Origin: Proteobacteria bacterium UBA981
Lineage (GTDB): Bacteria > Pseudomonadota > Gammaproteobacteria > Ga0077536
Reading direction: 5' to 3'
NCBI GenBank assembly: GCA_002292285.1
Contig: DBBP01000026.1
Span: 30,209 to 94,208 of the forward strand
DNA length: 64,000 bases
Each line of letters opens with the position of its first letter. Position 1 is the stretch's first letter. The notes under the pieces were generated by a model. The model was not told the DNA's origin. It worked only from the letters and a program-made list of their open reading frames with translations, and did no database searches. The translations under genes were made by a program, and so were the position numbers. Of this stretch, positions 406-51,535 are shown in pieces.

Positions 406-1032
406 ATGACGGATTCGAATTTTGTAGCCGGTAACAGCACGCACATTGATCCCGGCTGTATTGTCGGCTTGAGTTACAAAGACAACGCACCCACGACTCG
501 TTTGGGCGACAATTGCTTCATTCGCGCGGGCTCAATCATTTACGCCGGCGTGGTCATCGGTGACCATGTGCAAACGGGTCACCATGTGATGATTCGCGAG
601 AATACGAAAATCGGTAACCACGTCGTGATCGGCACTAATTCGGTGTGCGACGGCAATACAACCATCGATGCGTTCGTGAAGATAGAGTCCAATTGCTACA
701 TCTCAACGCATTGCAGCATCGGAACGCGGGTATTTCTTGGCCCCGGTGTTGTCCTGACAAACGATCGCTACCCCCTAAAACTCCGCGACACCTACAAGCC
801 GGAAGGCGTCATTCTGGAAGACGGTGTGACCTTGGGTGCGGGTGTGGTCGTATGTCCGGGCGTGACCATCGGTGCCGATAGTTTTGTCGCGGCCGGCGCT
901 GTAGTGACGCGGGATATTCCGCCACGCAGCTTCGTGAAGGGCGTGCCAGGGCAGATTTCGGCATTGCCACCTGAACTCGCAGAACGCAACATGGCGTTGT
1001 CGTGGCGCGGGTTTCTCGACCCAGATTCCTAA
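406..1032 (+). CDS. wbpD: Hexapeptide-repeat (left-handed beta-helix) sugar N-acetyltransferase, WbpD/PglD-like
   Basis: 208 aa with repeated [LIV]-G-x-x-x-x hexapeptides (IGDHVQTGHHVMI, IGNHVVIGTNSV, LGAGVVVCPGVTIGADSFV). GGAGAA RBS sits 8 nt upstream. Context is the adjacent oxidoreductase/aminotransferase and 2-epimerase. Confidence 0.75.
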   Translation: MTDSNFVAGNSTHIDPGCIVGLSYKDNAPTTRLGDNCFIRAGSIIYAGVVIGDHVQTGHHVMIRENTKIGNHVVIGTNSVCDGNTTIDAFVKIESNCYISTHCSIGTRVFLGPGVVLTNDRYPLKLRDTYKPEGVILEDGVTLGAGVVVCPGVTIGADSFVAAGAVVTRDIPPRSFVKGVPGQISALPPELAERNMALSWRGFLDPDS

Positions 1033-3188
1033 GCGGCGAAGGCTCGGCAAGAAATTTTTTTACCAGTGCAGCGTTGGATTACAGAGTATTGAAAATCGGA
1101 CTCATCGGGTGCGGAAAACAAGCACCAAAACATATTTCCGGATTGGCCAAACAAGCTGATGTTGAACTCGTCGTTTGCGACATCAACGCCGAGCGAGCGC
1201 GTGCCGTCGGCGAGAAATTCTCACTCGCATGGACCGACGACGTAGCAGGATTGCTTGCCGATGGCGACATTACTGCCGTTGACATTGCAACCCCGACTAT
1301 GTCGCATGCGCCACTGGTTCTCCAGGCGATTGAGAATGGCAAACACTTCTTCTGCGAAAAGCCACTTTGCCAGAATCTCGATGAAGCGCGGCTGATTGCG
1401 GACACCTGCGCGAAGAAAGGCCTGATCGGCATGGTCGGATATGTTTATCGTTATGCGCCAGTATTCGAAACGGGTCACGCGTTGCTACATCCAGATACGA
1501 CACGAGATCATGTGCTGGGTGAGCCGGTCTCAGCGTGGTTCCGTATCGGCGGCCGCGGTGACCACGAATTGTGGAAGCACAAGAAAGAGTCGTCCGGTGG
1601 CGCAACTTCGGAAATGCTGGTCCATATGCTTGATTTGGCCATCTGGTACTTCGGGGCAGCAAAGTCGGCTCAATTGCTCGCCCACGAACTACGGCGTCCA
1701 ATCAGACACATCGCCGGCGCTGACGTTACCGTTGACGCCGAGGATTTCGTACTGGCGCGATTCGAGATGGAGAACGGCGGATCGGTGTTTATCCAGTCTG
1801 ACTTGCTGACGCCGGCGTTTTCTCAGCACGTAGAGATGCAGTTTGAACGCGGCACATTTTTGGGATCAATCCAGGCGGACTCGCCATCGTTTGTATTCGC
1901 GACCGCGAAATGTGACGACTACGAAGCCGGCAAAACACCGCTCGAGTTTGGACCGGTCAACCTGTTTGAACGCCAAATGGGCGCTTTTTGCGAGCACGTG
2001 CGCAGCGGCACGCCGCTGTCGCGGAATTCGGTCGAAGATTCTTTAAAAGTAATGGAAGCACTCGAAATGCTTCGACAACAATGGGGTGATGCGGTGATTG
2101 GGATATCAGATACGAGTCTGACCGAGAACGAAATCGAGGCAGCTATCAAGGTCCTGCGCTCGGGCATGCTGCGCCAGGGCAAGGAGAGCGATGCGTTCGA
2201 AGAGGAGTTCGCAGAGAAAGTCGGCGCCGCTCACGCGGTTACGTGTGCCAATGGCTCAGCGGCATTGCATCTGGCCTACCTTGCCGCACTTGAGCCGGGT
2301 GACGAGGTCCTGGTTCCTGCGTTTACCTTCATCGCTACCGGCAGCATGGCCTCGATCATGGGGGCGAAACCGATTTTTTGTGATGTTGACCCGAACACAT
2401 TTTTACTCGACCTCGATGACGCAAGATCGAAGATTACTGCAAAGACGAAAGGCATCGCGCCAGTCCACCTGTTTGGCAACCCGTGCGATATAGACGCCGT
2501 GCAACAATTTGCTGCGGATCACGGCCTGAAGATCTTCTGGGATGCTGCACAGAGTCATGGGGCGACTCATCAGCAACGTGACGTCGGTAGCTTCGACGAT
2601 TTCGTCTGTTATTCGTTTTACCCTTCCAAGAATATGTTTGTCGGCGAAGGCGGCATGGTGTGTACGAATAATGCCGAGTACGAGAACAAGCTGCGTTACT
2701 TACGCAGTCACGGCCAGACTGGCAAGTACCACCACACAAGCCTTGGGTTAAATTACCGACTGACTGATATGGAAGCGGCCATCGGTCGGGAGCAGCTAAA
2801 ACGACTGGACAGCATGCTGGCGAGTCGGCGGCGTAACGCGCAACGGATGTGCGCGGGGCTCGATGGCATCGATGGCATCACGGCACAAACAGTCACTGCC
2901 GGCGGTGACCATGCCTGGCATCAGTTCTGTGTGTTGGTGGATAAGCGCGAATTTGGCTGCGACCGCGACGCCTTGTCCGCGCATCTTAAAACTGAAGGGG
3001 TAATGAGTGGGATTCACTATCCTCGTGGCTTGCATCAGCAGCCCATTTTTGAAGAGCTTTACGGCAAAAGCCAGCTTCCGGTAACGGAAGATTTGTCCGA
3101 GCGGATTCTCGCCCTGCCTATTCACCATAGCCTGGTTGATGCAGATATTGACGGGGTCCTTGCGGCGATTGCCAAGATCGCGTCCTAG
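1002..3188 (+). CDS. Fused bifunctional enzyme: N-terminal Gfo/Idh/MocA NAD-dependent sugar-nucleotide 3-dehydrogenase (WbpB/WlbA-like) plus C-terminal DegT/DnrJ/EryC1 PLP aminotransferase (WbpE/WlbC-like)
   Basis: Single uninterrupted 728-aa ORF. Residues about 30-350 carry a Rossmann motif (KIGLIGCGKQA) and Gfo/Idh/MocA features. Residues about 360-728 carry DegT motifs (GKESDAFEEEFAEKVGAAHAVTCANGSAALHLA, PLP-lysine region SFYPSKNMFVGEGG). The ATG at 1002 overlaps the upstream gene by 31 nt; an in-frame TTG at 1089 (L-KIGLIGCG) is an alternative start. Confidence 0.8.
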   Translation: MARVSRPRFLSGEGSARNFFTSAALDYRVLKIGLIGCGKQAPKHISGLAKQADVELVVCDINAERARAVGEKFSLAWTDDVAGLLADGDITAVDIATPTMSHAPLVLQAIENGKHFFCEKPLCQNLDEARLIADTCAKKGLIGMVGYVYRYAPVFETGHALLHPDTTRDHVLGEPVSAWFRIGGRGDHELWKHKKESSGGATSEMLVHMLDLAIWYFGAAKSAQLLAHELRRPIRHIAGADVTVDAEDFVLARFEMENGGSVFIQSDLLTPAFSQHVEMQFERGTFLGSIQADSPSFVFATAKCDDYEAGKTPLEFGPVNLFERQMGAFCEHVRSGTPLSRNSVEDSLKVMEALEMLRQQWGDAVIGISDTSLTENEIEAAIKVLRSGMLRQGKESDAFEEEFAEKVGAAHAVTCANGSAALHLAYLAALEPGDEVLVPAFTFIATGSMASIMGAKPIFCDVDPNTFLLDLDDARSKITAKTKGIAPVHLFGNPCDIDAVQQFAADHGLKIFWDAAQSHGATHQQRDVGSFDDFVCYSFYPSKNMFVGEGGMVCTNNAEYENKLRYLRSHGQTGKYHHTSLGLNYRLTDMEAAIGREQLKRLDSMLASRRRNAQRMCAGLDGIDGITAQTVTAGGDHAWHQFCVLVDKREFGCDRDALSAHLKTEGVMSGIHYPRGLHQQPIFEELYGKSQLPVTEDLSERILALPIHHSLVDADIDGVLAAIAKIAS

Positions 3189-6264: not shown

Positions 6265-7428
6265 ATGAGCACCACAAATCCGAACGAAACACCGCACGAC
6301 AAAGATGGGCTGTATCGGCCAGATCTCAACCCGTGTATCGCAGTGATCGTTGGGACGCGCCCCGGCATCGTGATGCTCGGTCCGGTAATCAAGGAGTTGG
6401 AGCGACGCGCTATCGACCATTTCGTGATTCACACCGGGCAGCACTATTCCCCGAACATGGATGCACAGTTTTTCGCCGATATCGCGTTAAGCGCACCGCA
6501 GTATCGGATTGATGGCACCGCCGCGCACACCACGCACGGTGCGCAGACTGCGCATATGCTGAGTGGAATTGAGGACATTTTGCTGCAAGCCCGGCCGCGC
6601 ATGGTATTGGTCGGCGGAGATGCGAACAGCAATCTGGCCGGCGCCCTGGCCGCGCGTAAACTGGGCATGACTCTGGGGCACGTTGAAGCCGGCGAACGGA
6701 GCTTCGACTGGTCTATGCCCGAAGAGCACAACCGCCGAATGATTGACCACATTTCGGACTACCTTTTCGTGACCGGCGAGAATGCCGTCGGCAACCTTGA
6801 GCGTGAGGGCGTTCAGGGCGCTATTGTCCGGAGCGGTAATCCGATCGTCGACGCCTCTCGCGAGTTTTCCCGACTGGCGCTGGCCAGACCGAACATTGAA
6901 GAACATTTAGGGGTCGCGGACCGTCGCTACGCGATACTGACGATGCATCGTCAGGAGAACGTGGATAACCCGGAGCGGTTACAGGGCGCTCTGCAGGGCG
7001 TATCGGACGCTGCGGTAGCGCTCGGGATACCGACGCTTTTTTTCGTGCATCCGCGAACGCAAAAGCGCCTCGAGGAGTTTAGTTTGCTCGACTGGCTGCA
7101 CGATTGTCCGGGCATTGAATTGAGAGAACCGGCCGGCTATCTGGATTTTCTTGCCTATGTGGCGCGATCTGCTCTCATATTCACGGATTCCGGCGGCGTC
7201 CAGCAAGAAGCGTGCATCCATGGAATTAATTGCGTTACTTTGCGCGATAACACGGAGTGGGTGGAAACAATTGATATCGGGGCTAACCGCCTGGCCGGAT
7301 GTGAACCGATGGCGATCGTCGATGCGGCAAAGGATGCCAGTGCCACGACCTGCAAATGGGAGGTTCCGTTCGGAGACGGGCACGCGGCAGCACGCATTGT
7401 CGATTGCGCCGTCGAAGTTCTTAAGTAG
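6265..7428 (+). CDS. wbpI: UDP-N-acetylglucosamine (or UDP-diNAc-uronate) 2-epimerase, WecB/WbpI family
   Basis: 387 aa. N-terminal VIVGTRPGIVMLGPVI (GTRPE-like motif), HVEAGERSFD (HVEAG.RS motif), and GG...NSNLAGALAA as in non-hydrolysing 2-epimerases. Confidence 0.85.
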   Translation: MSTTNPNETPHDKDGLYRPDLNPCIAVIVGTRPGIVMLGPVIKELERRAIDHFVIHTGQHYSPNMDAQFFADIALSAPQYRIDGTAAHTTHGAQTAHMLSGIEDILLQARPRMVLVGGDANSNLAGALAARKLGMTLGHVEAGERSFDWSMPEEHNRRMIDHISDYLFVTGENAVGNLEREGVQGAIVRSGNPIVDASREFSRLALARPNIEEHLGVADRRYAILTMHRQENVDNPERLQGALQGVSDAAVALGIPTLFFVHPRTQKRLEEFSLLDWLHDCPGIELREPAGYLDFLAYVARSALIFTDSGGVQQEACIHGINCVTLRDNTEWVETIDIGANRLAGCEPMAIVDAAKDASATTCKWEVPFGDGHAAARIVDCAVEVLK

Positions 7429-7462
7429 CCGGGCAGGCGGAGTTTCCCCGTATGGCAGCGCC

Positions 7463-9352
7463 TCATTTTCCCTTCGCGCTCTTCTCCGGAGCCTCATAGC
7501 GCCGTCTGCCATCGCGCCAGTCACCGTGACATATGGCACGAATAAAATCGCCCGCAGCCGAGTTCACTGTTTTCATATCTACAGCGCATACGATCTGCTT
7601 GCCGTCACTAACAAAAAGGTCGCGAGCCGGAGACTTAGCCAGCGTTTTATCGAGGGAATCCGAAACAATACATATAGCGCTCGTCGGGAACAGCTGGCGT
7701 ATCGCTGCGATACCGGTCGCCGACAGCTCGTAGACATACGCGCCTTCGAGTAGCAGCAGGGCAGGGGGGCGTCGGGCGTGCTCAAGACACGCGCAGAGAT
7801 AGTTGGGCAGCTCTGCGCGCATGGCGGAATCGGTTGCGCTGTTTTCCGCCGATGTATTTTGCGAACCAGTACCTTCCATTACAGTTGTTAACCAGGAACG
7901 CTCCCGCTCGGAAAGCGCATCAACATCCACTCCGGTAGCGCGTACAAAGATCACATCTGAATTCGTATTGGTCAGCGCTGTCATCTGCCGCTCGGACGCC
8001 TCACCAGGGTCAGTCGGCCCGAGCATCGCATAAACGCCTCCTGCCAAAAAATCGCCCTGGGTCGCCTGCAATCCGCCCGTTTCAATACCCCAATTGAGAA
8101 CGGCCTGATTTCCCGATGATGGACTCGGGGGTGTCTCCACGGAGGTTTGTGAGGCTCCACGGCTGGCGGAAATATCTGGTGGTGTCTGAGAACCATCGAT
8201 TTCCCGCATGAGTTCGTGCAGCCGAATCAGGTGGGGGAGAAACCGATTCACTGAGGTCACAGTGACCATCAGGCCCTCAAGGCCGTTCATGACAAAGCGC
8301 AATCCGAAAAACAACACCAGCAGAGAGCTGTAACTAACCATGCCCTGGTGCTGTTCTGAAAACATCAGCCAGACAAGAAAGCCAATACCGACCCCGACCA
8401 TAGACGACATGACTATCCGGGATGATTCAAGAACCAGCAGGCGGTTCTCTACCAGTCGATGGAATCCGCTAATGATTTCCGCTTCATTTTCCTCATCATC
8501 CTTATTTCCCCGTGCGTTGTTGCCCGCATCAATACCCGCATCGGGGTCTTCGAACATCTCATCATCGCCGAGAAAGGCGACTTCAGGCGCACTGTTGCCG
8601 GCCAGGAAATTGTTGACCTTTTCTCGAATCGCAGCGCTTCGTTTTGGAGCCTGCACTTCGAGCATGCGGGTAGTCCGTGTCGCACGCAGATTAAGTGGAT
8701 AGGTCATGAAAGCAGCGAATAGCGCGAATAACCCGATTAACGGCAACAGGAGGGGCGCATATAAAGCGATGATTGACAGACCGATCGCGATACTTCCTAA
8801 ATGGCTGATGTTGTACAGGCCCAGCCTGACAATCACGCCGGCGAATCTGGCGTCGGTATTGAGCACTCGCAGAACAGAGTATTTGCTTGCGATTCGCACG
8901 CGCGTGCGAATGGTGTGTAACAAGGCAGTGTCCACTTCAGTCTTGCGTCCGAAGTAGGCGCCGATCTCCGCGAAAAAGTAGCGATACACCCGGCTGTCCA
9001 GCCGAATCGCAATCGAGCGACTTGCATAGTTCAGGGCACCGCCAAGGAAAAACAGAACCACGAATACGGCAATGACCAGGTTTGGGTTGGGTGCAGCCAG
9101 CTCGATTCCAAGCCGGTCGATTCCCGGAAAGCTCGTGAGACGTCCGCTAGTTTGCAGCTGGCCGACCGCACCAACGATTATCCCGAAAGAGAAGCCCTGG
9201 CAGGCAATACTCGACGCTGTCGATATCGACGACAGGAATATGCGCCACGCGAATTGTTTCAGTGCTATTGAGAACAGCCAGCCAAGTAAAGACACATAGA
9301 CTTTGCCGCGAAAGCGCGCATTGTCGATGATGGTGCGAAGGCGTCTAAACAT
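7463..9352 (-). CDS. ABC exporter-like protein (type-I exporter TMD plus degenerate, probably non-catalytic NBD)
   Basis: 629 aa with about 6 TM helices followed by an NBD-like region. Walker A reads GPTDPGEAS (no Lys). The signature LSGGQ is not recognisable. Walker B reads LLLLEGAY (no Asp-Glu). The H-loop reads IVSDSL (no His). An acidic low-complexity insert (DDEMFEDPDAGIDAGNNARGNKDDEENEAE) lies in a cytoplasmic loop. Confidence 0.7.
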   Translation of the reverse strand: MFRRLRTIIDNARFRGKVYVSLLGWLFSIALKQFAWRIFLSSISTASSIACQGFSFGIIVGAVGQLQTSGRLTSFPGIDRLGIELAAPNPNLVIAVFVVLFFLGGALNYASRSIAIRLDSRVYRYFFAEIGAYFGRKTEVDTALLHTIRTRVRIASKYSVLRVLNTDARFAGVIVRLGLYNISHLGSIAIGLSIIALYAPLLLPLIGLFALFAAFMTYPLNLRATRTTRMLEVQAPKRSAAIREKVNNFLAGNSAPEVAFLGDDEMFEDPDAGIDAGNNARGNKDDEENEAEIISGFHRLVENRLLVLESSRIVMSSMVGVGIGFLVWLMFSEQHQGMVSYSSLLVLFFGLRFVMNGLEGLMVTVTSVNRFLPHLIRLHELMREIDGSQTPPDISASRGASQTSVETPPSPSSGNQAVLNWGIETGGLQATQGDFLAGGVYAMLGPTDPGEASERQMTALTNTNSDVIFVRATGVDVDALSERERSWLTTVMEGTGSQNTSAENSATDSAMRAELPNYLCACLEHARRPPALLLLEGAYVYELSATGIAAIRQLFPTSAICIVSDSLDKTLAKSPARDLFVSDGKQIVCAVDMKTVNSAAGDFIRAICHGDWRDGRRRYEAPEKSAKGK

Positions 9353-9730
9353 GTTGCTCAGTTTATCGGCAATGCGGGTTGACCAAAAACGTAATTAAGA
9401 CAGATTGCCTGCCCGGATCTGGCCGAAACCGGCGCCGCCTCAGCCAGGCCAATTCGAATCATTCTCACGGCACAGCAGGCTTCAGAAATGCCATCGACGC
9501 TACGTTCGAATTTTCGCATGGGCCGGCGCGCCACGCTAGCGCGACAAGACTCGCGACCTGAATCAGCCTTCAAAGTTCGTTAGACTTAGCCGCCGTCCGT
9601 GGCGGGACCGTTCTGTACAGGCCGGACGTGTTCACGATTCGAATTTAAGTGGTCCAGGCACGGTAGCGAAATTAGATCGGCAAGTATCCATTCGAAGACG
9701 ACATGGCAACGATGAAACTAGGAGAATTCG

Positions 9731-11203
9731 ATGACTGATGGCGGCCAGCGCGGGCAAGATTCTGAAATTGCCTTACCCGGATTCGGACTGAATATCGCTG
9801 GCCAGTATCCGAGGTTCTATCGCAGGATGGTTGCTGTGCTGGAATGGCAGAATAAACATGTCCCGCTACTGTTTCGACTAGAAATGGTGCTGTTTCGTAC
9901 CATAATTGTCATTGTCGATGCGGTCCTTTGGATTCTGCTTGGTAACTTAGCCCTGACGGGAGTGGCGCCTGGCAAACTGTCACGTGGTTACTCTTCATAC
10001 AGAGGGTCGTCGCGAAGTTACAATTCCCGCGAATTAGTTAATGAGATCGCCCAGCTAAATAGAAAGCTAGAGCGCTATACCCCAAATATCGCGGTGATCT
10101 CATATCTTACTTTCGCCCAGCGCTGTGTCGAAACCAGTACGGCGCTAGCTGCCGACGCGTACGTCGCGCACGGGGTTCAGTCTTTGCCAACGGCGTCTAT
10201 TCTCGCCAACGAGCAGGGCGGGAAATACTATTGCGACTGCATTGAAACCCCTTCGTTCTTTGACCGAGCCTTGCCGGTCAACTGGGATGTGACCAATACC
10301 CATTTTCTGGACAGGGCGTTCGAAAGTTATCTACGTCACGCCGACGGTATCCTCACTGTTGGTTGGACCCTGGCTGATCAGCTAAGGAAGCTACACAACA
10401 ATGTAGCGGTGATTCCGAACTATCGATATGCCGAAACTCTCGCGCCAAATGATTGGTTGCGAGAAAAATGCGGGGTTTCCGAAGACACCGATCTGGTGCT
10501 GTCGTTGAACACGGTAACCGCTGGATTGGATGTTGTGCTGGCGGCACTCGCACTACTTCCTCCTAGCGTACACCTTGTGACTGTAGGTAGGTTCGCCCCA
10601 GTCGGTTACCGAGAAACCTGCGAAAAATATGCGGCAGAACAAGGCGTCCTCGAGCGGTTTCATTGTCTCGATCCCCTTCCGTACAAAGATCTCACGGCGA
10701 CGATTTCGATGGCATCGGCCGGATTGATTGTGCTCGACCCCAGCATTAAGAATGTTCAGGTCTCACTTCCGAATCGAATCTTCGACTATATGTTCGCAGG
10801 GGTACCGATTTGTTCGCCGCTCATTCCAGATATCGCCCGAATTATCGCTGACGAGAATATTGGTGGCATCGTCACTGATCTAAGCCCGGCCGGATGGGCC
10901 GAAACTATCAGTAGCGTGTTGCAAGAAAAGGATAAGCTCCGCGACAACGCGGTCACGGCATCGAAAAAGTACATATGGGAATCAGTCGAGGACGACCTGT
11001 TTGAGTCCCTGGGTAGACCCGCCAGCGTGTGCTACGTCGGCGCAAGCAATTTACGCGAGAACAATCGAACGATGCGCATGGCACGCTCGCTGGTCGCTCG
11101 TGGCGTTGAGGTAACTGTTTGTTACAGATGCAGGCCTGGAGAGACACCTAACGACGCGGCGGTATTGGATGACGGAATCAAGTTCGTATCACTTGCTAAT
11201 TAA
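9731..11203 (+). CDS. Glycosyltransferase family 1 (GT4-type) with N-terminal TM segment
   Basis: 490 aa. AGGAGA RBS 7 nt upstream. The C-terminal domain is GT1-like (LVTVGRFAPVGYRE..., FDYMFAGVPICSPLIPDIARII). Confidence 0.75.
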   Translation: MTDGGQRGQDSEIALPGFGLNIAGQYPRFYRRMVAVLEWQNKHVPLLFRLEMVLFRTIIVIVDAVLWILLGNLALTGVAPGKLSRGYSSYRGSSRSYNSRELVNEIAQLNRKLERYTPNIAVISYLTFAQRCVETSTALAADAYVAHGVQSLPTASILANEQGGKYYCDCIETPSFFDRALPVNWDVTNTHFLDRAFESYLRHADGILTVGWTLADQLRKLHNNVAVIPNYRYAETLAPNDWLREKCGVSEDTDLVLSLNTVTAGLDVVLAALALLPPSVHLVTVGRFAPVGYRETCEKYAAEQGVLERFHCLDPLPYKDLTATISMASAGLIVLDPSIKNVQVSLPNRIFDYMFAGVPICSPLIPDIARIIADENIGGIVTDLSPAGWAETISSVLQEKDKLRDNAVTASKKYIWESVEDDLFESLGRPASVCYVGASNLRENNRTMRMARSLVARGVEVTVCYRCRPGETPNDAAVLDDGIKFVSLAN

Positions 11204-11492
11204 CGATGGACGCGCCCTACCTTCCCGATTGCTGTTGAAAAAAGTGACAAATGACAGGCTGATAATCTGCGGCGCAACTATTCGGACAATTTAACTCACG
11301 ATAGGTAGCGGCAGAGTGGCGCTGCGACATCGGAGGGCGTTTTGACGCTGCCAATTTTCGCCGAACTACGACCGAGCAGGCTCAGAATTTCGGCCACTGT
11401 TGTCCGTAGATTACAGCGCATCGAGGCCACTACCGCCCGTCGCATTGCAACAATAGCGAACGGTATAGTCCACAGCTGCGGATTGCCCTGGG

Positions 11493-12333
11493 TCATGATG
11501 CCAGCGGTAGAAATCGGTTTCTGGAAGCTCCCGCGGTCCCAACCAGCATTGTGCAGGGCGGCCGACTTCGAAATGCCCTCGGTGTGACTTCGACGGTTGG
11601 GTCTATCAACCGCAAAGTAAACGCGAGTCTGTTTGGCACTTCGGTAGAGCGAAGGCCCGGCAGCGCATGACTTGAGCCGTGGATTAGTAGCGGATGGAAA
11701 ATGAAAAACTCCCCGGGGCTGCATAACCAAACGAGAAACAGTGTCCGTGGTTGCGCCTGCAAACCTCGTGTTTCCTCGTCCAGCGAGGAGCTTTTTCGTC
11801 AGGCCAAAACGACTTCGCAATTCCGAGTAATCGAGCAGGTGAGATCCGGGAATGACCACAGCACAATTCTCGGCCGGTGCTGCGGACACAGCAACCTGAA
11901 CTGAAATCTGGTGCTCGTCGGGATTCGCGTGGGTGAGGACCTTCCGATAAGTGTCTCTGTGCAACGGTAAATTCGGAACGCCCGAGAATATTGCCGTTCG
12001 CCAAATCGAGATGTTCGGACCAAGGAGGGATTGGCACGTCGTAATGAGCGCGGACGAACGACATATTGCTGCCGCAACAGGCGAATCCAAATGCGGGTTT
12101 AGCGACCCGGGAATTTCTCCGCGGCGAAAGGATTCTTCAAATCTGGCAGTCACAGATTGGTCAATCCCAGGCAGGGGGCCGGCATACCCGAATTCAGCAA
12201 ATGAAGTAACAACGTCGTCTTCCACGATAGGGACCTCTGAGCAACGAAATGGAACCGACCGATCGGCGTGATAACGTTTGAAACGGATTTCCCTGCCGAC
12301 CGTTCGAGCAGTGGACCTGAGACCGGGAATCAC
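11493..12333 (-). pseudogene. Phytanoyl-CoA dioxygenase (PhyH)-family Fe(II)/2-oxoglutarate oxygenase, disrupted by frameshift(s)
   Basis: The frame starting at 12333 encodes a PhyH-like N-half with the HxD motif (PLHRDTY) and AVVIPGSHLL. The C-terminal motif GEFFIFHPLLIHGSSHALPGLRSTEVPNR (Gxxx[FI]FHxxxxHxSxxNxS...R) lies in a different frame (ORF 11493..11762). A third frame also carries pieces around 11684..12064. Confidence 0.5.
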
Positions 12334-19045: not shown

Positions 19046-20137
19046 TTATTCGCGGACGGGTTTCGAGCTGAACTGACGGATTAACAGAAGGGCCACAACG
19101 GCACAGGCGAACTTAAATAACGTGCCAATCAAAAAGATCAGGTGCGTATGCACCGCCAGAACGCCGGCGTCCGCTTCGCTGTATCCCAGCAAGATAAGGG
19201 CGTATAGCCAACCGACTTCGTGTGTGCCGATATTCGCGACAGCACGTATGGGTAGCACGCTGATTGGCAACTGTAACGCGAACACAACAGCACACAGCGC
19301 GAAACTCACGGTTTGATCGAGCGCCTTTATGACGAAAAAAAAGCCAGCCACAAGGACAGCAATACTGAGTAGCGACAAAAACGTGGCGTTGTAGTAAGTG
19401 CGTGGCTTAACAATGCTGACTGCGGTACGTAAAAATTGGTTGGCAAAAGCACGCAAAGCGTCGAAGTATCGGGAGACGCCCGGCAACGACGCACGGGAGG
19501 AATCTTCTGCAGAGGCTGTCTCCTGATGGCCATTGATTCGTTGCCTTACCAACCCGTTCAGGGCCGAACTGTAATGTAACCCCAGCGGCACGAAGAGTAC
19601 GACGAGACAAACTACGATCCCGGCGATTGATAGTGAGTGCGGGAGGACCGCAACAAAGAACGAGCCGGCAACAAGAAAGCAAATGGTATAGATGCTCAGT
19701 TCTATGAAGCGATAAACGAAAAGTGCAGACGTCGCGGCCCCCATTTCGATACCGTTCCATCTCTTTAACAGCCATATCAATACGGGTTCGCCAACCCAAC
19801 CGGGCAACAGATCCCTGACCGTGGCCTGCGTGAACAGCGTGCCGAGTACTCGATGTGGCGCATCTAAAGACAACATCAAGTGCAGGCGAATGGCGCGGAT
19901 GGCGGTAAAAACGATAATCGTAAGCAGATAGCCTGTTAAATAAGTCCAGTCGAGCGTGAATTCTGCAAGTTGTTCCAGGGACAAATCGGTTTCCCGAATG
20001 AACAACGCCAAAAGACCGAAACCAAATAACGACCCGGCCAGCAAATGCCGCAGCGTTTTTGAACGTACTCCTGGCTCGTTAGCGTTTGCCAGCTTGGCTT
20101 GGGAGCCTTCGTATTTTTTGGAGATTGGCAATTTCAC
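19046..20137 (-). CDS. Flippase-like membrane protein (lysylphosphatidylglycerol-synthase TM-region / UPF0104 family)
   Basis: Multi-TM protein (GSLFGFGLLALF..., IAGIVVCLVVLFVPLGL..., FALCAVVFALQLPISVLPIRAVANIGTHEVGWLYALILLGY). The maximal ORF reaches 20293 but would overlap the upstream gene by 111 nt. An in-frame GTG at 20137 is a plausible start, but the start is uncertain. Confidence 0.6.
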   Translation of the reverse strand: MKLPISKKYEGSQAKLANANEPGVRSKTLRHLLAGSLFGFGLLALFIRETDLSLEQLAEFTLDWTYLTGYLLTIIVFTAIRAIRLHLMLSLDAPHRVLGTLFTQATVRDLLPGWVGEPVLIWLLKRWNGIEMGAATSALFVYRFIELSIYTICFLVAGSFFVAVLPHSLSIAGIVVCLVVLFVPLGLHYSSALNGLVRQRINGHQETASAEDSSRASLPGVSRYFDALRAFANQFLRTAVSIVKPRTYYNATFLSLLSIAVLVAGFFFVIKALDQTVSFALCAVVFALQLPISVLPIRAVANIGTHEVGWLYALILLGYSEADAGVLAVHTHLIFLIGTLFKFACAVVALLLIRQFSSKPVRE

Positions 20138-20181
20138 GTTTTTACTGTCGCCCCGGGCAGGACCCAGGCTACGTTTACGGC

Positions 20182-21525
20182 CTAGGTAACCAAGCCTTGA
20201 GAAAGTCGCTCGGCAGCGTCGCGGCCCTGGCGGATCGCGGTGTGTGTGCCTCGATAATCCGGATAAACTTGCGCCTGCGTTGCGATTAGGCAATTCGCCA
20301 TCGGCAATTCGGGTGGCGGAACGCTCTCACCATATTTTTTCAATATCGCGGGCTGCGCGTCGGCCGCTCGCCACGTGTGCGCATCGATGACCCAGTCGGC
20401 GTCAAAATCGGCGAACATTTTTTCCAGGTGAGCGAGTCCATACGCGATGTAGGCGTCGTCGTCCATGTCGTAGGCTTCCATTCCGGGCGCTGTACTTTGT
20501 GACAGATAAATGATGTGTTCGCCGTTGTATTCTGATGGTGGTCGGAATTGCGTGTGCTCAATGACACCGACAAAAGGAAAGGCCAGATCCCGGTTTGACA
20601 GCCAGTAACAATTAGACAGCGAACGCTTTGACCGAATAATGATTCCGCGCGAATCAAGATAGGCAATCGCGTTGAACGCATCCAGGTTCTGCTGCGGGAG
20701 CGTGTGGGCTAACAGACGTGCTGCCTCAGGTAGCGGAGTCGTAATAATCATGCCATCAAAGGCATGGGCGCTACCGTCGACTTGCAATGTTATCGAAGTA
20801 TTGGCTGACGGGTCTGCTCTGACCAGCTCTGCGCGGGTCTGTTTTCTAATAACGCCGTTTTGAGCAAGAATGTGCGCCTCAATATCATCGAACAATGCAG
20901 AAAACCCACCCTCGTAGTAGGACGATGTCGAGCCCTTCTCACTACGTCCCTTGCGGGCCTTATTACTTTGCAATTTCTGCCACACCCACACCACAGAAAT
21001 CTCGTCTGCGTAGTTTCCGAACCTTGAAACCAATAACTGCTTCCAAAATTTTTCGTAAACATTGTGGTTTCCGTATTTCGTGAACCAGTCCTTGACCGAA
21101 TAGTCGTCTATCGTACGCCAATCGGTTACCGCGCCGAGCTTCCAGATGCCGAAAGCCATGCGCGCCGATTCGGTGAGCGATAAATCTGTATAGCGGAAAT
21201 GATCTAAAGGGTTACGTGTTCGCCAAACGGAATCACGAAAGTAGAATCCATGCTCCATGGAAATGCTGAACTCTTTGGCTTTCAGTCCGAGTACGTCAAG
21301 CAGCCATTCGAAGTTCTCGTCGCCGGCATACCATTGATGGTAGAACTTTTCGAGCCTGTAAGCGCCAGTATCGAAACTTGATGCAAGGCCACCGAGCTCT
21401 GGCTGACTCTCAAAAATCGTGACGCCAATTCCTTTCTCCAATAGCGAAAGGGCTGCGGCGGCACCGCAGAATCCGCCGCCGATGATAGCCACCTGCGGAG
21501 TGGAGTTACTTCGAGGTGCTGTCAT
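20182..21525 (-). CDS. FAD/NAD(P)-binding oxidoreductase (amine-oxidase / protoporphyrinogen-oxidase / UDP-galactopyranose-mutase-like fold)
   Basis: N-terminal dinucleotide-binding motif VAIIGGGFCGAAAALSL...VTIFES...LGG. 447 aa. Confidence 0.7.
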   Translation of the reverse strand: MTAPRSNSTPQVAIIGGGFCGAAAALSLLEKGIGVTIFESQPELGGLASSFDTGAYRLEKFYHQWYAGDENFEWLLDVLGLKAKEFSISMEHGFYFRDSVWRTRNPLDHFRYTDLSLTESARMAFGIWKLGAVTDWRTIDDYSVKDWFTKYGNHNVYEKFWKQLLVSRFGNYADEISVVWVWQKLQSNKARKGRSEKGSTSSYYEGGFSALFDDIEAHILAQNGVIRKQTRAELVRADPSANTSITLQVDGSAHAFDGMIITTPLPEAARLLAHTLPQQNLDAFNAIAYLDSRGIIIRSKRSLSNCYWLSNRDLAFPFVGVIEHTQFRPPSEYNGEHIIYLSQSTAPGMEAYDMDDDAYIAYGLAHLEKMFADFDADWVIDAHTWRAADAQPAILKKYGESVPPPELPMANCLIATQAQVYPDYRGTHTAIRQGRDAAERLSQGLVT

Positions 21526-21648: not shown

Positions 21649-22449
21649 TCAGTATTCGAAACCGTAATGCCTGGCTTCGGCGGCGCAAATTTTCATGATG
21701 CTGTTTGAATCAAGAACTGGGCCAGCCGCTCTATGTTGGTCAAGCGTAGGGTTCTCGCGTCGTACGTTAATTGAAGTTTCTGAGATACGCTCGGGGTCGA
21801 GTCCGAGATGTTCGACCATATGCCTGGCCAGTTCGACTTTGACGCCTCGCTCGAAAAACAAATCTTCATAGCGGATTGTAAGGCTGGGTTCGGACGAAGA
21901 TGCTATAAACTCGCGAATTCGTGCATTGCGGTATACCCAACGCCACGCAAATCGCTCTGCTTCAGACCACCGACGCCAATCTGGATTCCCGAATTTTGGA
22001 CGGTCACGTGCAAATGGAAGGATTGGGACAAGTGACCGACGCCAGCTATAGCTGCCAAAGCCTATTGACGAGCGTACCCACGCCACCGGGTGCCGAATGA
22101 GATGAATAAGTGCAGTCGGTTTCACGACCGACAGGCGGCTGCCCATGTCAACAATAAAAGGATTGATTTCAACCAACAGGTCTTGATTGCTGCTATTCTG
22201 CAACCAGCTTTCGCGGGAGCTTTTAAACCAGTTTGTCGCAAGTTGAAGCCCCGGACGAGACACGCTGGGCGGGCATTGAGTGGCTATGTTGTTGAGTATC
22301 CTCAAAATACGTGAGGGCTCGCGCTCTTGGGCTACAACTATTTCAGGATAGAGCTGTTCCAGCAGTTTGGTTATGAACGTCGAGCCGGTTCGCCCGGCGG
22401 TCAGGACGTGTGCGTATCGTGAACCGGAATATCTGGCAATTTCTGACAT
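21649..22449 (-). CDS. PAPS-dependent sulfotransferase-like protein
   Basis: 266 aa. 5'-PSB-like P-loop LTAGRTGSTFITKLL near the N-terminus and a 3'-PB-like LIRHPVAWVRSS segment. Confidence 0.65.
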   Translation of the reverse strand: MSEIARYSGSRYAHVLTAGRTGSTFITKLLEQLYPEIVVAQEREPSRILRILNNIATQCPPSVSRPGLQLATNWFKSSRESWLQNSSNQDLLVEINPFIVDMGSRLSVVKPTALIHLIRHPVAWVRSSIGFGSYSWRRSLVPILPFARDRPKFGNPDWRRWSEAERFAWRWVYRNARIREFIASSSEPSLTIRYEDLFFERGVKVELARHMVEHLGLDPERISETSINVRRENPTLDQHRAAGPVLDSNSIMKICAAEARHYGFEY

Positions 22450-23628: not shown

Positions 23629-25515
23629 ATGAATAGCGACGCCGAATTCAGCGTTCCGTATCCGCCCACCAGTCGCTCATACTGGATTGGCGGTGTGTTT
23701 ATATTCTTGGTTTCGGTCGTGGTGTACGCGCCCGGAAATTTTTTCGTTTCCTGGGACCTTTCAACATACCTGGCGTGCGCCCGCAATCTCCTCGACGGCG
23801 CCGGTTTCGTCGATCCTGTTGGACAAGCGGTCGAGAGTCGACTGGGGTTCATAGTGATCCTCGCCGGCGCACTGATCGCTGGCGGGGAATCCCTCGCTAC
23901 GATCGCAGCTGTCGAGACTCTCGGCAGTGCGCTTTTTGTCACGGCCATGTTTCTGCTCGCCTATCGTCTGTTTGGGCCGTTAATCGCTTTTGTGGCCAGC
24001 GGCCTGTTTTTACTATCCCCGGATTGGAATTTTTGGTTACCCCGGCATCTGGACCCGTTCTGGCCCGGGTTCGTACTTTGCAGTCTCGTGGCTTTGCTGA
24101 ACACCAAAGGACGCTTCGAGTGGATGGTTGGAATAGTCGCGGCCTGCTGGCTCGTGTTGGCTTATTCAATCAAGGAAACCGCGATACTTTTTCTACTCGG
24201 GTATGGCGTGCTGCTGTATCTCGGTGCGCTCCCTGGGACAAAAATTCGAACTTGGTGGTTTGTCGGTTCGGTTGTGTTTGCTGCGAGTGTCTTCATTGGC
24301 CTGCGCATATTCGCCGAGGCGGCACCTGTTAACCCGTACGCGGGCGGCCGTCTGAATGTGATTGCAGAACTCTTCAACGACCGGAGCCTCGTTGGCGGCA
24401 TTCTGGCCAGTGCGCAGTGGGCAGCAGTGGGCATCGTGCGCGCGATGTTCGGTTTTTTTGGTGACAGCCGTCTGTTGACAGTGATGCCTTTGTTGCCTGT
24501 GTTCGCCGTCGGATTTGTCATGCACTGCGTGCTGGCACTCAGGGGCCGACCCAGCGACCAGATCATCGTAGTGATGTTCATCGCCTATTTGCCGTTCATG
24601 GCGTTGATCGGCCAGATGAATTTTCGACCGTCCCAGAATCTCTTCTCTGTCGCGCTGATGTATATCTCTATTGCTGCGCTGATCGTTCGTGCAGGGGGCT
24701 TGCTGACTTCCCGACGCTGGTGCCAAGTCTTGAGTGTGGCCATCCTCGCGCTGTTATGCGCGGCATGGCAGGTGGACAACGGCGTTCTAACGATTTCCAA
24801 AAGCTCAGCGCGTAATTATTTTTGGCGAGCATGTTGTGCCCGGCCGGGCACACAGGCATTTGCGCCGCGACTTCGCGGTACGGCGGTCGCAGCTTGGGTG
24901 AACGACAATATTCCACCTGGTGAAACCATCGTAATCGGTGACGCGCCGACGCAGCATGGCATTAATTTCCTGAACGGTCAGCGCAATAAAATCGCTTTCC
25001 CGCCGATTTTCAATCTGACTTTTTCCGGGGCCTGGGCGGATTCTCCACTTGCGCCGCCGGGCTCTGCAAACTACGTCGTCGCGGCAGTCTGGCCCGGGAA
25101 AATATTTCCGCGGCCAGTATTTTTGCTTGAACCGGATTGGTTCATCGAACGCATGGCAGAGTTACAGGCCACCACGATCATATTGTCCAGCGTTGGCATC
25201 GACCCGGCGATCGCACATTGGTTACGTGAAGGTGCTGGGCTCACGCCATTGGCGACAATTGCCAGGCGCAAACGCCATTACGACGTGTACGACATCTCGC
25301 CCTTGCTATCGCGCGAATTTTCGAGATCTCGACAATTGATAGTCAATGACGATTTTTTGCAATACCTGCGGAGAGTCAAAGAAGAGCACCCGGAACATTG
25401 GCAGTGGTATTTGGACGAGCTGTTTGACGACAGATTGAATCTTGACGCCAAAGTTGCGGAGCAGGTGGCGGCGGGTGAATTACCGCCCGAGTTCGCCGTA
25501 CTACCTCGCGAGTAG
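23629..25515 (+). CDS. GT-C fold membrane glycosyltransferase (ArnT/PMT-like, GT39/GT83-type; polyprenyl-phosphate-sugar dependent)
   Basis: 628 aa. Ten or more N-terminal TM helices with an ArnT/PMT_2-like pattern (SWDLSTYLACARNLLDGAGF; ...LLSPDWNFWLPRH...), and a C-terminal soluble domain of about 230 aa. Confidence 0.6.
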   Translation: MNSDAEFSVPYPPTSRSYWIGGVFIFLVSVVVYAPGNFFVSWDLSTYLACARNLLDGAGFVDPVGQAVESRLGFIVILAGALIAGGESLATIAAVETLGSALFVTAMFLLAYRLFGPLIAFVASGLFLLSPDWNFWLPRHLDPFWPGFVLCSLVALLNTKGRFEWMVGIVAACWLVLAYSIKETAILFLLGYGVLLYLGALPGTKIRTWWFVGSVVFAASVFIGLRIFAEAAPVNPYAGGRLNVIAELFNDRSLVGGILASAQWAAVGIVRAMFGFFGDSRLLTVMPLLPVFAVGFVMHCVLALRGRPSDQIIVVMFIAYLPFMALIGQMNFRPSQNLFSVALMYISIAALIVRAGGLLTSRRWCQVLSVAILALLCAAWQVDNGVLTISKSSARNYFWRACCARPGTQAFAPRLRGTAVAAWVNDNIPPGETIVIGDAPTQHGINFLNGQRNKIAFPPIFNLTFSGAWADSPLAPPGSANYVVAAVWPGKIFPRPVFLLEPDWFIERMAELQATTIILSSVGIDPAIAHWLREGAGLTPLATIARRKRHYDVYDISPLLSREFSRSRQLIVNDDFLQYLRRVKEEHPEHWQWYLDELFDDRLNLDAKVAEQVAAGELPPEFAVLPRE

Positions 25516-25620: not shown

Positions 25621-27666
25621 ATGCAACTGAATCGGCTGGCGATTGAACAAAAAAAGCGACGTGAGGACCGGAGCGAACTAGGGCCAAGCGGGCTCTTGAG
25701 CCTCACAATCAAGCAGAGATGCTGGAAATATCGTATCGGGCTGCGAGTTTGTTCCGTAATAGAATTAATCCGTGATCAACGATTATTTCATTTGTCCAGG
25801 CGGAACTACCGAGTGCAAATAAACAGGGACATTCACGGCGTCGTATGTTGGTCGCTCGTAGTGCTGACGTTACTACTGGTACCGATATTCGCGCTGACTA
25901 CGGGGCCGGATTCCGTATTTTACCTGGAGAAGGGGCTCGACCTATATTTGGGGCGAGGATACGACCATCCGACACGGGGCCCGATTTTCGCGAGCATACT
26001 CGCGACCGCTTTCTCGGTACTGGGGCCCTCCGCGATTGTCGCCACAATCGTTGTTCGCACGTTTTTTCTTCTCAATGTATTAATGGTGTGGCTTTTAGCC
26101 AGACAGTTGTTCGGGGCTGCGGCCGCGAACTGCAGCGTGCTGTTGCTATTGAGTGCCGCGTTCGTGCATGAGTCGACCGGGACGATCGGGCTTGATGCGG
26201 TCTATCCCTTGTTCGTTCTAATCGGGATTTACTTTTCCGTCGTGAGCTTCGAACACGAACGTATCTGGCCAGCTATCGCTGCCGGAGCGAGCTTCGGAAT
26301 CGCGGTCCTTACAAAGGAACTCGCCTTACTCCACGTTGTCTTCCCGTTTGCTTATCTAGTGTTCGACGCGACCCTCAGAAACTCACGGAGGGCCTGGGGC
26401 AATGCTGCGGTCCAATATCTGGTCTGTGCTTTGGCGGTCACACCTTGGCTAATATTTCTCGCGCTGGGCGACGACGGCGTGGCCACCATGGTGGGGAAGG
26501 GCGGCCCCAAGAATCTGCATAAGCTTGCCAGCCTTGACGGGAATTCGTTGATCGATTCAATCAATTTTTATCTCAGCGGCATGCCGCAGTTTTTCCAGCG
26601 CTACGTAGCGCGCGAGTCCGCCATTTGGCCACTGTGGGCGGTTGCATGGGTCTATATGGGCTTCCTCGCTGTGCGCGAGCGCTCGGCGCGCGCTTTGGTC
26701 GTGGCGATTGCTTTGTTCATACCGGTTATGGTCGCCGAAGGGCACGTCTCCATCCGCATAGGACAGAACCACATAGCGTACTGTGTGTCGGTTATCGCAA
26801 GTGGGGCGTTATTGGGCAGAATAATTGACTACGGGTCGGCTCGTGTCTGGCCCAGGTTCGCGCAGGTGTGCCTGTATGTCATGGTCGTGGCGATCTCTAT
26901 CTATCAATTGACTACTGGTCGCGACAACGCACTGAATCGCATTAAGGGCAATTCGACTAGCGCGTTTTTGCTGACTCAAGGGACACTACCGGCCTGGCAA
27001 GTAAAAGGTACCCTCAACGATGATTCGCGGCGCGCCGCAGAATGGGTTTCCGCCAATCTGCCTGAAGGCGAACCGATAGTTGCCGATTATTTGTTGTTCC
27101 GTTCGATGTACGTGCAGTCAGGAGGTCGTTACCCGATCTACAAGTTCCCGTATGACAACCTCGACGTACAGTTGTCGTCGCAGCCGTCAGCGGCGTTTAA
27201 GGATGGCGACAACGAAGGACCGTTATTGTTTCTTTGGAGCCATGTCCGCAGGGATCGATTTTGCAATTGGCAAAGTTCACCATGCATCCTTTTTCACACG
27301 TTTTACGAAGGAACGTTTGCGAAATTTATGGCTGAGCGCGGCGCCCGCTACGTGGTTCTGGGTGCACGCACCTGGTTTCTCAGAGAGTACTTCGACGCTC
27401 ACCCCGCAGCGACACTGAAGCAAGTCATATCGGAGCGGATTCGCATTTACTCCGTTGATGTCGATCAGTCGGTTGGGGAATTCCCGCTGCGCGTAGGCGA
27501 GGAGGTACCGCGGTTGCTTAACAAGGTGGTCTCAGAAGTTCCTGCCGCCGTGCCTTGGTTCGACGAGACAGTACTGCATCAGACACTTCATCTTGAATTG
27601 ATCATTGCTGATCTTGTCAACGGTCCATCGCGCATCGCGCTTTTTCCTAAAGTACCGCCGCTCTAG
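25621..27666 (+). CDS. GT-C fold membrane glycosyltransferase (ArnT/PMT-like), second tandem copy
   Basis: 681 aa with the same architecture as the preceding gene (LGRGYDHPTRGPIFASILA..., multiple TM helices, large C-terminal soluble domain). The first 64 codons look non-coding; an in-frame GTG at 25813 preceded by AGGCGGA is a likely start. Confidence 0.6.
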   Translation: MQLNRLAIEQKKRREDRSELGPSGLLSLTIKQRCWKYRIGLRVCSVIELIRDQRLFHLSRRNYRVQINRDIHGVVCWSLVVLTLLLVPIFALTTGPDSVFYLEKGLDLYLGRGYDHPTRGPIFASILATAFSVLGPSAIVATIVVRTFFLLNVLMVWLLARQLFGAAAANCSVLLLLSAAFVHESTGTIGLDAVYPLFVLIGIYFSVVSFEHERIWPAIAAGASFGIAVLTKELALLHVVFPFAYLVFDATLRNSRRAWGNAAVQYLVCALAVTPWLIFLALGDDGVATMVGKGGPKNLHKLASLDGNSLIDSINFYLSGMPQFFQRYVARESAIWPLWAVAWVYMGFLAVRERSARALVVAIALFIPVMVAEGHVSIRIGQNHIAYCVSVIASGALLGRIIDYGSARVWPRFAQVCLYVMVVAISIYQLTTGRDNALNRIKGNSTSAFLLTQGTLPAWQVKGTLNDDSRRAAEWVSANLPEGEPIVADYLLFRSMYVQSGGRYPIYKFPYDNLDVQLSSQPSAAFKDGDNEGPLLFLWSHVRRDRFCNWQSSPCILFHTFYEGTFAKFMAERGARYVVLGARTWFLREYFDAHPAATLKQVISERIRIYSVDVDQSVGEFPLRVGEEVPRLLNKVVSEVPAAVPWFDETVLHQTLHLELIIADLVNGPSRIALFPKVPPL

Positions 27667-51523: not shown

Positions 51524-51535
51524 GCATCTGAATCG

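Follow-up and report, generated by a model that had tools for sequence, protein, structure and literature searches.

We analysed a 64,000-nucleotide stretch of DNA from Proteobacteria bacterium UBA981 (positions 30,209 to 94,208 of contig DBBP01000026.1, assembly GCA_002292285.1; hereafter the window) and, within it, an open reading frame (ORF) on the minus strand at 7463..9352 that starts with ATG and encodes a protein of 629 amino acids. Homologues, profile comparisons and a structural model agree that this ORF derives from an ATP-binding cassette (ABC) exporter and consists of a transmembrane domain (TMD) followed by a pseudo-nucleotide-binding domain (pseudo-NBD). The gene is part of a surface-glycan cluster roughly 50 kb long, which extends from ccmAB on the left to approximately window position 42 kb, the left flank being covered by 9 kb upstream of the window read from a longer contig. 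No promoter or terminator was found in a scan of 7300-9800. What is new here is that the loss of the ATP motifs is shared by a whole unnamed family that resides in glycan clusters.

A search of 5.8 billion proteins with the 629-residue sequence returned only six clusters of full-length homologues (629-663 amino acids, 38-47% identity), all of which align end to end and carry no Pfam domain. Running a profile of these six close clusters against 1.84 billion representative proteins gave a family set of 81 members, mostly of 560-620 amino acids, the size of an ABC half-transporter. The family is therefore small in terms of representative clusters (81 among 1.84 billion), and its sequences are all derived from metagenomes; a 13-sequence query of 185,579 species-representative genomes found two family loci, both in metagenome-assembled genomes of uncultured Gammaproteobacteria and both carrying the close subfamily to which the window protein belongs. 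The proteins encoded at loci L002 and L006 are identical, and all other pairs of homologues share less than 50% amino acid identity. One member, P0020 at locus L016, reaches 962 residues, with an unexplained extension of about 340 residues.

The disappearance of every catalytic motif, together with the lack of any Pfam or NCBIfam match, could suggest a decaying relic or an annotation artefact. Against such a reading stand an intact 629-residue ORF that is colinear with its homologues across 81 representative clusters, down to about 17% identity, the many invariant residues of the TMD and a confident model fold in both domains. Moreover, four independent metagenome contigs, each from a different sample, carry the gene with the same DNA sequence, and a partial fifth copy differs by one mismatch. 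The conservation data effectively refute this explanation, to which we attach a negligible probability. The initial annotation had allowed for a frameshifted pseudogene; the ORF proves intact, the six homologues align with it throughout and the copies agree across contigs, which rules a frameshift out. The same annotation had treated the protein as a single odd case: the anomaly stands and the singularity does not, since 81 representative clusters share the motif loss.

Taken alone, the window protein has no relevant match in Pfam, NCBIfam or, by phmmer, the PDB, even at E<=10, and this includes the Pfam models PF00664 (ABC_membrane) and PF00005 (ABC_tran). Because the single protein matches nothing, its status as an ABC exporter homologue required proof at the level of the family. 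Comparing a shallow six-sequence alignment with one MsbA sequence by hhalign gave no significant match (probability 0.6%), and ABC_membrane matches only 4 of the 81 relatives, all weakly. The 81-member profile, searched against the PDB, recovers BmrA at E=6e-16, with a match running from the third transmembrane (TM) helix, TM3, to the end of the NBD, followed by MsbA (7e-8) and EfrCD (8e-7); it also recovers the isolated NBD chains LptB, BtuD and EcfA (2e-4 to 2e-2) with the whole C-terminal domain covered. When the C-terminal domain alone was compared by hhalign with four genuine NBDs, the alignment reached E=3e-5 over 171 columns; this NBD set included, as an internal control, the window's own MacB-type ATPase (49754-50434), whose motifs are fully canonical. 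A profile query of a word-indexed protein database added one bona fide exporter carrying both PF00664 and PF00005, P0090.

Structural comparison points in the same direction. An AlphaFold (AF2) model built from the 81-sequence alignment has a mean predicted local distance difference test score (pLDDT) of 87.8 and a predicted template modelling score (pTM) of 0.71, and shows six very long helices followed by a C-terminal alpha/beta domain. Searched with Foldseek against the PDB, its top 50 matches are all type-I (type IV fold) ABC exporters, at probability 1.0 and over about 650 columns, headed by TmrAB (1.2e-11) and followed by MsbA, TM287/288, McjD, PCAT1 and ABCB10; an earlier model from a shallow alignment agrees. 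The protein thus combines a six-helix TMD bearing long intracellular extensions with a C-terminal domain homologous to the ABC NBD fold, and since both the fold and the homology tests point the same way it belongs, by descent, to the type-I ABC exporter superfamily. We conclude that the gene encodes a presumably functional member of an apparently undescribed lineage that branched from the type-I (type IV fold) ABC half-transporters and is homologous to them in both domains.

Hydropathy and the model agree on a 2+2+2 TM topology. The first part of the TMD (TM1-TM4, residues 1-250, at 8603..9352 on the minus strand, as are all features of this gene), delimited by hydropathy, model and column conservation, comprises the model helices 2-69, 90-135, 144-158/160-198 and 202-250 and contains the conserved family residues Y19, W25, Q52, Y109, D167, R169, G172, R176, Y218 and E232. 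There follows, at residues 251-284 (8501..8602), a disordered acidic insert (pLDDT 52-62) in the intracellular loop between TM4 and TM5; the acidic run extends to about residue 292, with 14 Asp/Glu against 3 Lys/Arg across residues 245-295. Both the alignment with BmrA and MsbA and the model place this insert at the position of coupling helix 2, and its length and sequence vary among homologues. An acidic low-complexity insert had been described before and is indeed present, in the TMD and not in the C-terminal domain to which it had been assigned.

The second part of the TMD (TM5, TM6 and their cytoplasmic extensions, residues 285-389, 8186..8500) is the most conserved portion of the protein. 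The family alignment reveals two motifs in it. The first, ENRLLVLESSR at the cytoplasmic end of TM5 (residues 302-312, 8417..8449), retains R304 in 75/80 members and E309 in 61/80, and also S311 and R312. The second is the TM6 signature LFFGLRFVMNG...T-x-x-N-R-F-x-P-x-x-x-R (residues 347-377, 8222..8314), in which R352 (74/81), T366 (73/81), N369 (70/81), R370 (80/81), P373 (75/81) and R377 (75/81) are kept. R352 lies in the middle of the hydrophobic core of TM6 and is the sole basic residue deep in any TM core. A Pro/Ser-rich linker (residues 390-418, 8099..8185; pLDDT 49-69) leads to the NBD-derived, catalytically degenerate alpha/beta domain (residues 419-629, 7466..8098; pLDDT about 90), identified by hidden Markov model (HMM) comparison and hhalign. 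This C-terminal domain is kept, as at least 200 residues after the TM6 motif, in 51/63 of the motif-bearing family members.

The constraint on these regions is unevenly distributed. Pairwise identity among the six close homologues reaches 52% over residues 1-244 of the TMD and 65% over its residues 291-390, and falls to 31% in the C-terminal domain, 23% in the insert and 15% in the linker; the residues that are near-universal in the family all lie in the TMD or its intracellular extensions. In ABC transporters the NBD is usually the conserved part, so conservation here is inverted, with the TMD more conserved than the C-terminal domain.

The state of the ATP-handling motifs was established by aligning the 81-member family HMM with BmrA and Escherichia coli MsbA (hmmalign), by the HMMER profile-versus-PDB matches and by hhalign, and all three alignments give the same registration. 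The strand and Walker A of BmrA, GKVTAIVGPSGGGKTT, align with GGVYAMLGPTDPGEAS in the window protein, so that the Walker A position is occupied by GPTDPGEAS (residues 445-453, 7994..8020), with E451 in place of the Lys and two of the three glycines gone. At the position of the LSGGQ signature the protein reads AMRAEL (residues 510-515, 7808..7825), which bears no similarity to LSGGQ. In the helix and Walker B segment, YLCACLEHARRPPALLLLEGAY, both the alignments and the family columns place LLLLEGAY (residues 532-539, 7736..7759) at Walker B, with LLLLEG lying on ILMLDE; the hydrophobic strand is retained, the Asp has become E536, preserving an acid, and the catalytic Glu has become G537. The H-loop position holds IVSDSL (residues 562-567, 7652..7669), where ICIVSDSL aligns with TIVIAHRL and the His is replaced by S564 or D565, the register being uncertain by one. 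The Q-loop and helical subdomain are about 40 residues shorter and the Q-loop region cannot be aligned; the terminal strand is preserved (ADQLLFVEKGEI in BmrA, ARDLFVSDGKQI in the window protein). When the rest of the protein was scanned with regular expressions, GxxxxGK[ST], LSGGQ-like and hhhhD[DE] strings were all absent, and together with the concordant alignments this excludes intact motifs at other places.

The initial annotation had read this ORF as an ABC exporter homologue with all catalytic NBD motifs lost, citing GPTDPGEAS, LLLLEGAY, IVSDSL and the missing LSGGQ. Profile, structure and residue-level alignment bear it out on each motif, the degenerate versions falling on the canonical positions when the protein is properly aligned by HMM, MsbA included.

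The loss extends to the entire family. Not one of the 81 members matches PF00005 or shows, at the NBD position, a Walker A or LSGGQ motif. In the following counts the denominator is the number of members aligned at the column concerned. The Walker A Lys is present in 3/73, Arg being the commonest residue there (30/73) and no Gly-rich loop being formed; the catalytic Glu is found in 8/69 and the H-loop His in 2/69. The Walker B Asp column is acidic in 49/69 (34 Asp and 15 Glu), and the A-loop column retains an aromatic or aliphatic residue, Trp in 29/75. The P-loop position has the family-wide consensus [TS]-P-x-x-[LI]-[ND]-R-[YF], and in columns 445-453 the window protein differs from all six of its close homologues. 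Judging from these alignments, the motif loss is an ancestral, universal trait of the family rather than a defect of a single gene, and the window protein is predicted neither to bind nor to hydrolyse ATP. Walker A, LSGGQ, Walker B with its catalytic Glu, and the H-loop His are all missing, no Q-loop Gln can be aligned, and since the protein lacks every catalytic hallmark, the annotation "ABC transporter ATPase/permease" is inappropriate. Because the loss is family-wide, the question shifts to the role of an ABC exporter fold devoid of ATPase.

The residues that have survived at these positions raise the possibility that the pseudo-NBD has been re-tooled for another anionic ligand, such as 3'-phosphoadenosine 5'-phosphosulfate (PAPS) or its product PAP, a nucleotide sugar or a second messenger, and that the protein is a ligand-gated facilitator or exporter. 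The P-loop consensus with its Arg, the acidic Walker B column and the A-loop Trp are consistent with this, as is the recurrent association with sulfotransferase and PAPS genes described below, and a D-loop mutant of TAP is reported to behave as a nucleotide-gated passive facilitator (PMC4242082). Yet the subfamily to which the window protein belongs does not conserve these positions: E451 stands for the Arg, and residues 445-453 vary. A Gly-rich loop that could enclose a phosphate is missing, and conservation of the C-terminal domain is low. We consider such re-tooling very improbable.

Ten loci were sampled so as to span the divergence range of the family (the window, L002, L007, L008, L009, L011, L015, L016, L017 and L018). 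Genes of heterodimeric ABC exporters are normally adjacent pairs; no paralogous type-I ABC half-transporter adjoins the gene in any of these ten loci. This bears on the proposal that the protein is the silent half of a heterodimer, powered by an ATPase-competent half-transporter whose gene lies elsewhere in the genome. Heterodimeric type-I exporters in which one site has degenerated are frequent, and in TM287/288, TmrAB, BmrCD and TAP impaired NBD motifs are tolerated, with a structural role taken on (PMC7756269); the genome is, moreover, visible only in part. In these systems, however, only one site is degenerate, and the degenerate protomer keeps its Walker A Lys and binds ATP (PMC7756269), whereas here Walker A and signature have both gone from one chain. 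A protomer without either motif would cripple both composite ATP sites of any dimer, and coupling helix 2, the contact to the partner NBD, appears to have been replaced by the disordered acidic loop. Side-by-side paralogue genes and a degenerate protomer with a retained Walker A are thus both lacking, and we regard a silent heterodimer half as improbable. The idea, raised in the initial annotation, of a regulatory or structural partner of another ABC protein is unsupported for the same reasons. The only ABC genes nearby are ccmAB and an unrelated MacB/FtsX-type pair (47241-50434); the MacB-type pair was rejected as a partner, being of a different fold class and lying outside the glycan cluster.

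All ten sampled loci are glycan clusters, so the association with a glycan pathway that characterises flippases of lipid-linked glycans is found throughout. The window cluster encodes UDP-sugar dehydrogenases, WbpB/E/D/I-like enzymes for 2,3-diacetamido uronic acids and a WbpM-like dehydratase, together with many GT4 glycosyltransferases, an asparagine-synthase-like amidotransferase, O-acyltransferases and a methyltransferase. It also contains a WbpL/WecA-type initiating phosphoglycosyl transferase (PNPT, 38311-39351). Models for Wzx, of the multidrug/oligosaccharidyl-lipid/polysaccharide (MOP) superfamily, and for Wzm/Wzt, Wzz and Wzy found no match across the window cluster including the 9 kb upstream. 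The earlier suggestions of a protein domesticated for glycan assembly, and of a pseudo-ATPase tied to it, are thus supported by locus context and, for the latter, by the motif alignment as well.

Two immediate neighbours recur with the gene. Divergently transcribed from it is a membrane-anchored GT-B glycosyltransferase of 490 amino acids (9731..11203, plus strand; Pfam GT1/GT4, with a TM helix near residue 52), an orthologue of which (48-50% identity) occupies the same position in L002 and L007. Residues 445-486 of this enzyme, at its extreme C-terminus, match, over a short stretch, the beginning of the GT4 N-domain profile, and this feature is kept in the L002 and L007 orthologues; the enzyme may be circularly permuted or have an otherwise unusual GT-B arrangement. 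Downstream, and convergent with the gene, lies a non-hydrolysing UDP-GlcNAc 2-epimerase of the WecB/WbpI-like type (6265..7428, plus strand; Epimerase_2 at 5e-91, NCBIfam wecB at 1.5e-94), which is found likewise in L002, L009 and L015, making four loci with the window.

These neighbours lend some weight to the view that the protein does not transport at all and is a scaffold or regulator, a dimeric membrane platform whose pseudo-NBD and acidic loop would recruit glycan enzymes (the glycosyltransferase, the 2-epimerase, sulfotransferases) or would sense an intermediate and gate synthesis. The divergent pair with the membrane-anchored glycosyltransferase is conserved, and in L007 the glycosyltransferase is 50% identical to that of the window, against 34% for the pseudo-ABC protein; the 2-epimerase lies directly downstream in four loci, a Wzx-like flippase co-occurs in L007, and the pseudo-NBD fold persists though catalytically useless. 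ABC proteins without a transport function are known (PMC7828314). On the other side, the strongest constraint falls on TM5 and TM6 with their mid-membrane Arg, which a mere anchor would not need, and the supposed interaction module, the C-terminal domain, is the least conserved folded part of the protein. The glycosyltransferase partner, furthermore, is limited to the close subfamily and is not found in L009, L011, L015 or L016. A scaffold or regulator is in our estimate rather unlikely.

Sulfation is a second recurring theme, sulfotransferases being present in 5/10 loci. At L016 (GCA_035503715.1; 1089-9813 and 17033-18496), CysN/APS-kinase (CysNC-like), CysD-like and CysQ-like genes accompany two sulfotransferases, so that PAPS supply and sulfation genes beside the pseudo-ABC gene form a self-contained module. 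In the window, a 266-residue ORF at 21649-22449 (minus strand) matches Sulfotransfer_3 only weakly (E=0.003); should this match be genuine, the ORF would link the window cluster to the sulfotransferase association of its relatives.

In summary, the ATP site is destroyed, the TMD, including its charged intramembrane positions, is under selection, and the gene is always found among glycan-assembly genes. The reading we favour, to which we give a probability of roughly 0.45, is that the protein is a homodimeric, ATP-independent translocase for a lipid-linked, probably anionic, glycan, in which the dead NBD is structural. The protein would form a homodimer and flip or export a glycan, carried on undecaprenyl-(pyro)phosphate and probably anionic or sulfated, that the cluster around the gene produces. 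R352, R304, R312, R370 and R377 would serve as ligands of the pyrophosphate or anionic head group, like the cavity arginines of PglK and the basic sites of MsbA. Net flux would not depend on ATP hydrolysis; it would be pulled by the proton-motive force or by use of the flipped intermediate in the periplasm. The NBD would have been reduced to a nucleotide-blind structural module that holds the dimer together and/or docks the divergent membrane-anchored glycosyltransferase, while the transmembrane exporter domain remained strongly constrained; the disordered acidic loop in place of coupling helix 2 would fit a TMD that needs no power stroke from an NBD. We favour a translocase because the mid-membrane Arg and the belt of Arg, Asn and Thr at the cytoplasmic ends of TM5 and TM6 suit a head-group pathway and would be unneeded by an anchor, because the window cluster has no recognised flippase, and because the same fold binds lipid-linked head groups through Arg or Lys in PglK and MsbA.

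Several points weigh against a translocase. We infer transport from fold, conservation and genomic context, and the basic residues at the helix ends could merely reflect the positive-inside rule or salt bridges of the intracellular domain. Given that the residue at the Walker A Lys position is E451 here and Arg in 30/73 members, the pseudo-P-loop of some members could still accommodate an anionic ligand. Although the pLDDT is 88, the global TM-score against solved exporters reaches only about 0.4, which leaves the arrangement of the domains uncertain; the description of the TMD as a normal type-I exporter fold in the initial annotation is overstated in view of this score and of the undetected ABC_membrane model, even with a Foldseek probability of 1.0. 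Locus L007, which encodes a 34%-identical relative, has a MOP/Wzx-like gene 2.5 kb away (PF13440, 5e-10), so the family is not a universal replacement for Wzx, and a general rule to that effect was rejected. Within the window cluster there are other flippase candidates, namely an orphan polytopic protein (23629-25515) and an LPG_synthase_TM protein (19046-20293). We know of no natural ATP-independent transporter with a type-I exporter fold, and none was found in the literature, of which coverage was partial; nor did a partial survey of the literature, Pfam and NCBIfam yield a precedent for a lineage of type-I exporters whose NBDs are completely dead or for an ABC-like protein in sulfated-glycan clusters.

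Among the closest parallels for a translocase of this kind are PglK of Campylobacter jejuni and its homologue Wzk, type-I ABC exporters that flip oligosaccharides linked to undecaprenyl pyrophosphate. PglK, too, combines six TM helices with a C-terminal NBD fold in one half-transporter and is encoded inside a glycan-assembly cluster. Its residues R86, R260, R302 and R309 contact the pyrophosphate of the lipid-linked oligosaccharide (PMC5395944), and the family arginines R304, R352, R370 and R377 may be analogous to such TM-helix arginines. PglK differs in being an active ATPase with canonical motifs and hydrolysis-dependent flipping, whereas the present family has no intact Walker A or signature; it was not among the listed PDB sequence matches of the family profile. 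In MsbA, two sets of basic residues receive lipid A phosphates, R78/K299 and R188/R238/K243, of which R188 and K243 are exterior ligands of lipopolysaccharide phosphate (PMC10945598). R223 and R304 of the window protein align with MsbA R188 and K243, and R299, which aligns with MsbA R238, is not conserved in the family. The homodimeric exporters MsbA and BmrA are among the best profile and Foldseek matches and are colinear with the family from TM3 to the end of the NBD, yet identity is only about 11-14%, and the window protein departs from them in its dead ATP site, its acidic insert at coupling helix 2 and its shortened Q-loop and helical subdomain.

The job we propose is also that of Wzx, an ATP-independent translocase of repeat units linked to undecaprenyl pyrophosphate (Und-PP), for which a cationic lumen suited to anionic O-units is reported (PMC3412221, PMC3774195). 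Wzx, however, belongs to an unrelated 12-TM MOP fold and family, and the window protein was rejected as a Wzx/MOP flippase: it matches none of PF01943, PF13440 and PF14667, and the fold search returned ABC exporters only. Passive or regulatory functions on a type-I exporter scaffold are familiar from CFTR, a channel, and SUR, a regulator. In CFTR, SUR and the TAP D-loop mutant, in contrast to the present family, ATP is still bound at intact or half-intact sites and the motifs are not totally lost.

Other genes of the cluster deserve a brief description. The orphan at 23629-25515 (plus strand) encodes 628 amino acids with about 11 TM helices, has no Pfam or NCBIfam match and has one distant homologue cluster, without annotation, among 5.8 billion proteins; it could be a Wzy-type polymerase or another transporter of the cluster. 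ORFs at 19046-20293 (minus strand), 25621-27666 and 29026-30126 (both plus strand) resemble a three-part set for periplasmic glycan decoration, composed of a DUF2304-GT2 polyprenyl-phosphate glycosyltransferase (AglJ/PpgS/ArnC-like), a PMT_2 GT-C enzyme (with an Agl23-like match) and the LPG_synthase_TM "flippase-like" protein; a DUF2304-GT2 gene is also found near the pseudo-ABC gene in L007 (13181-14233). A second pair of GT2 and LPG_synthase_TM genes (50756-52531, plus strand) lies outside the main glycan cluster, beside the MacB/FtsX-type pair. As listed, the ORFs at 19046-20293 and 20182-21525 (both minus strand) overlap by 112 nt, and since the Pfam match of the LPG_synthase_TM ORF starts at residue 85, its TTG start probably lies too far upstream. 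The 728-residue ORF at 1002-3188 (plus strand) joins a GFO/IDH/MocA oxidoreductase (WbpB-like) to a DegT aminotransferase (WbpE-like); since L002 and L015 encode these as separate adjacent genes, consecutive steps of the pathway appear to be fused here. Finally, a weak PhyH/chlorinating-enzyme-like ORF (Fe/2-oxoglutarate dioxygenase) at 11296-12333 (minus strand) lies in the glycan cluster, and its GTG start, giving 345 amino acids, is probably too far upstream because metagenome gene callers give 309.

A stronger form of the translocase reading is that the family would provide the first natural ATPase-free transporter with the fold of a type-I ABC exporter. It would be a homodimer that flips highly anionic Und-PP-glycans (for example sulfated, uronic-acid-rich ones) by facilitation or proton coupling, with the fossil NBD as a dimerisation and enzyme-docking module, and it would be the "missing flippase" of marine bacterial O-antigen and capsule loci without a recognisable Wzx. 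Such a gap has been noted for Cobetia (PMC11766843). We regard this stronger form as doubtful.

The record of a near-identical cluster member in IMG carries the label "ABC-type multidrug transport system fused ATPase/permease", which is misleading and would spread the wrong energetics into pathway models. ABC exporters are the textbook example of ATP-driven alternating access, and the extent to which their TMDs can function without an ATPase is debated. A family in which an exporter TMD is conserved and an NBD fold persists without its nucleotide-handling residues is a natural evolutionary experiment, both on what the TMD can do alone and on why a fossil NBD is retained. The recurrent association of the family with sulfotransferase and PAPS genes suggests a connection to bacterial polysaccharides that are sulfated, a class of biotechnological interest. 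If the protein is indeed a translocase, it would represent a third route for lipid-linked glycans across the inner membrane, beside Wzx and the ABC systems of the Wzm/Wzt or PglK type.

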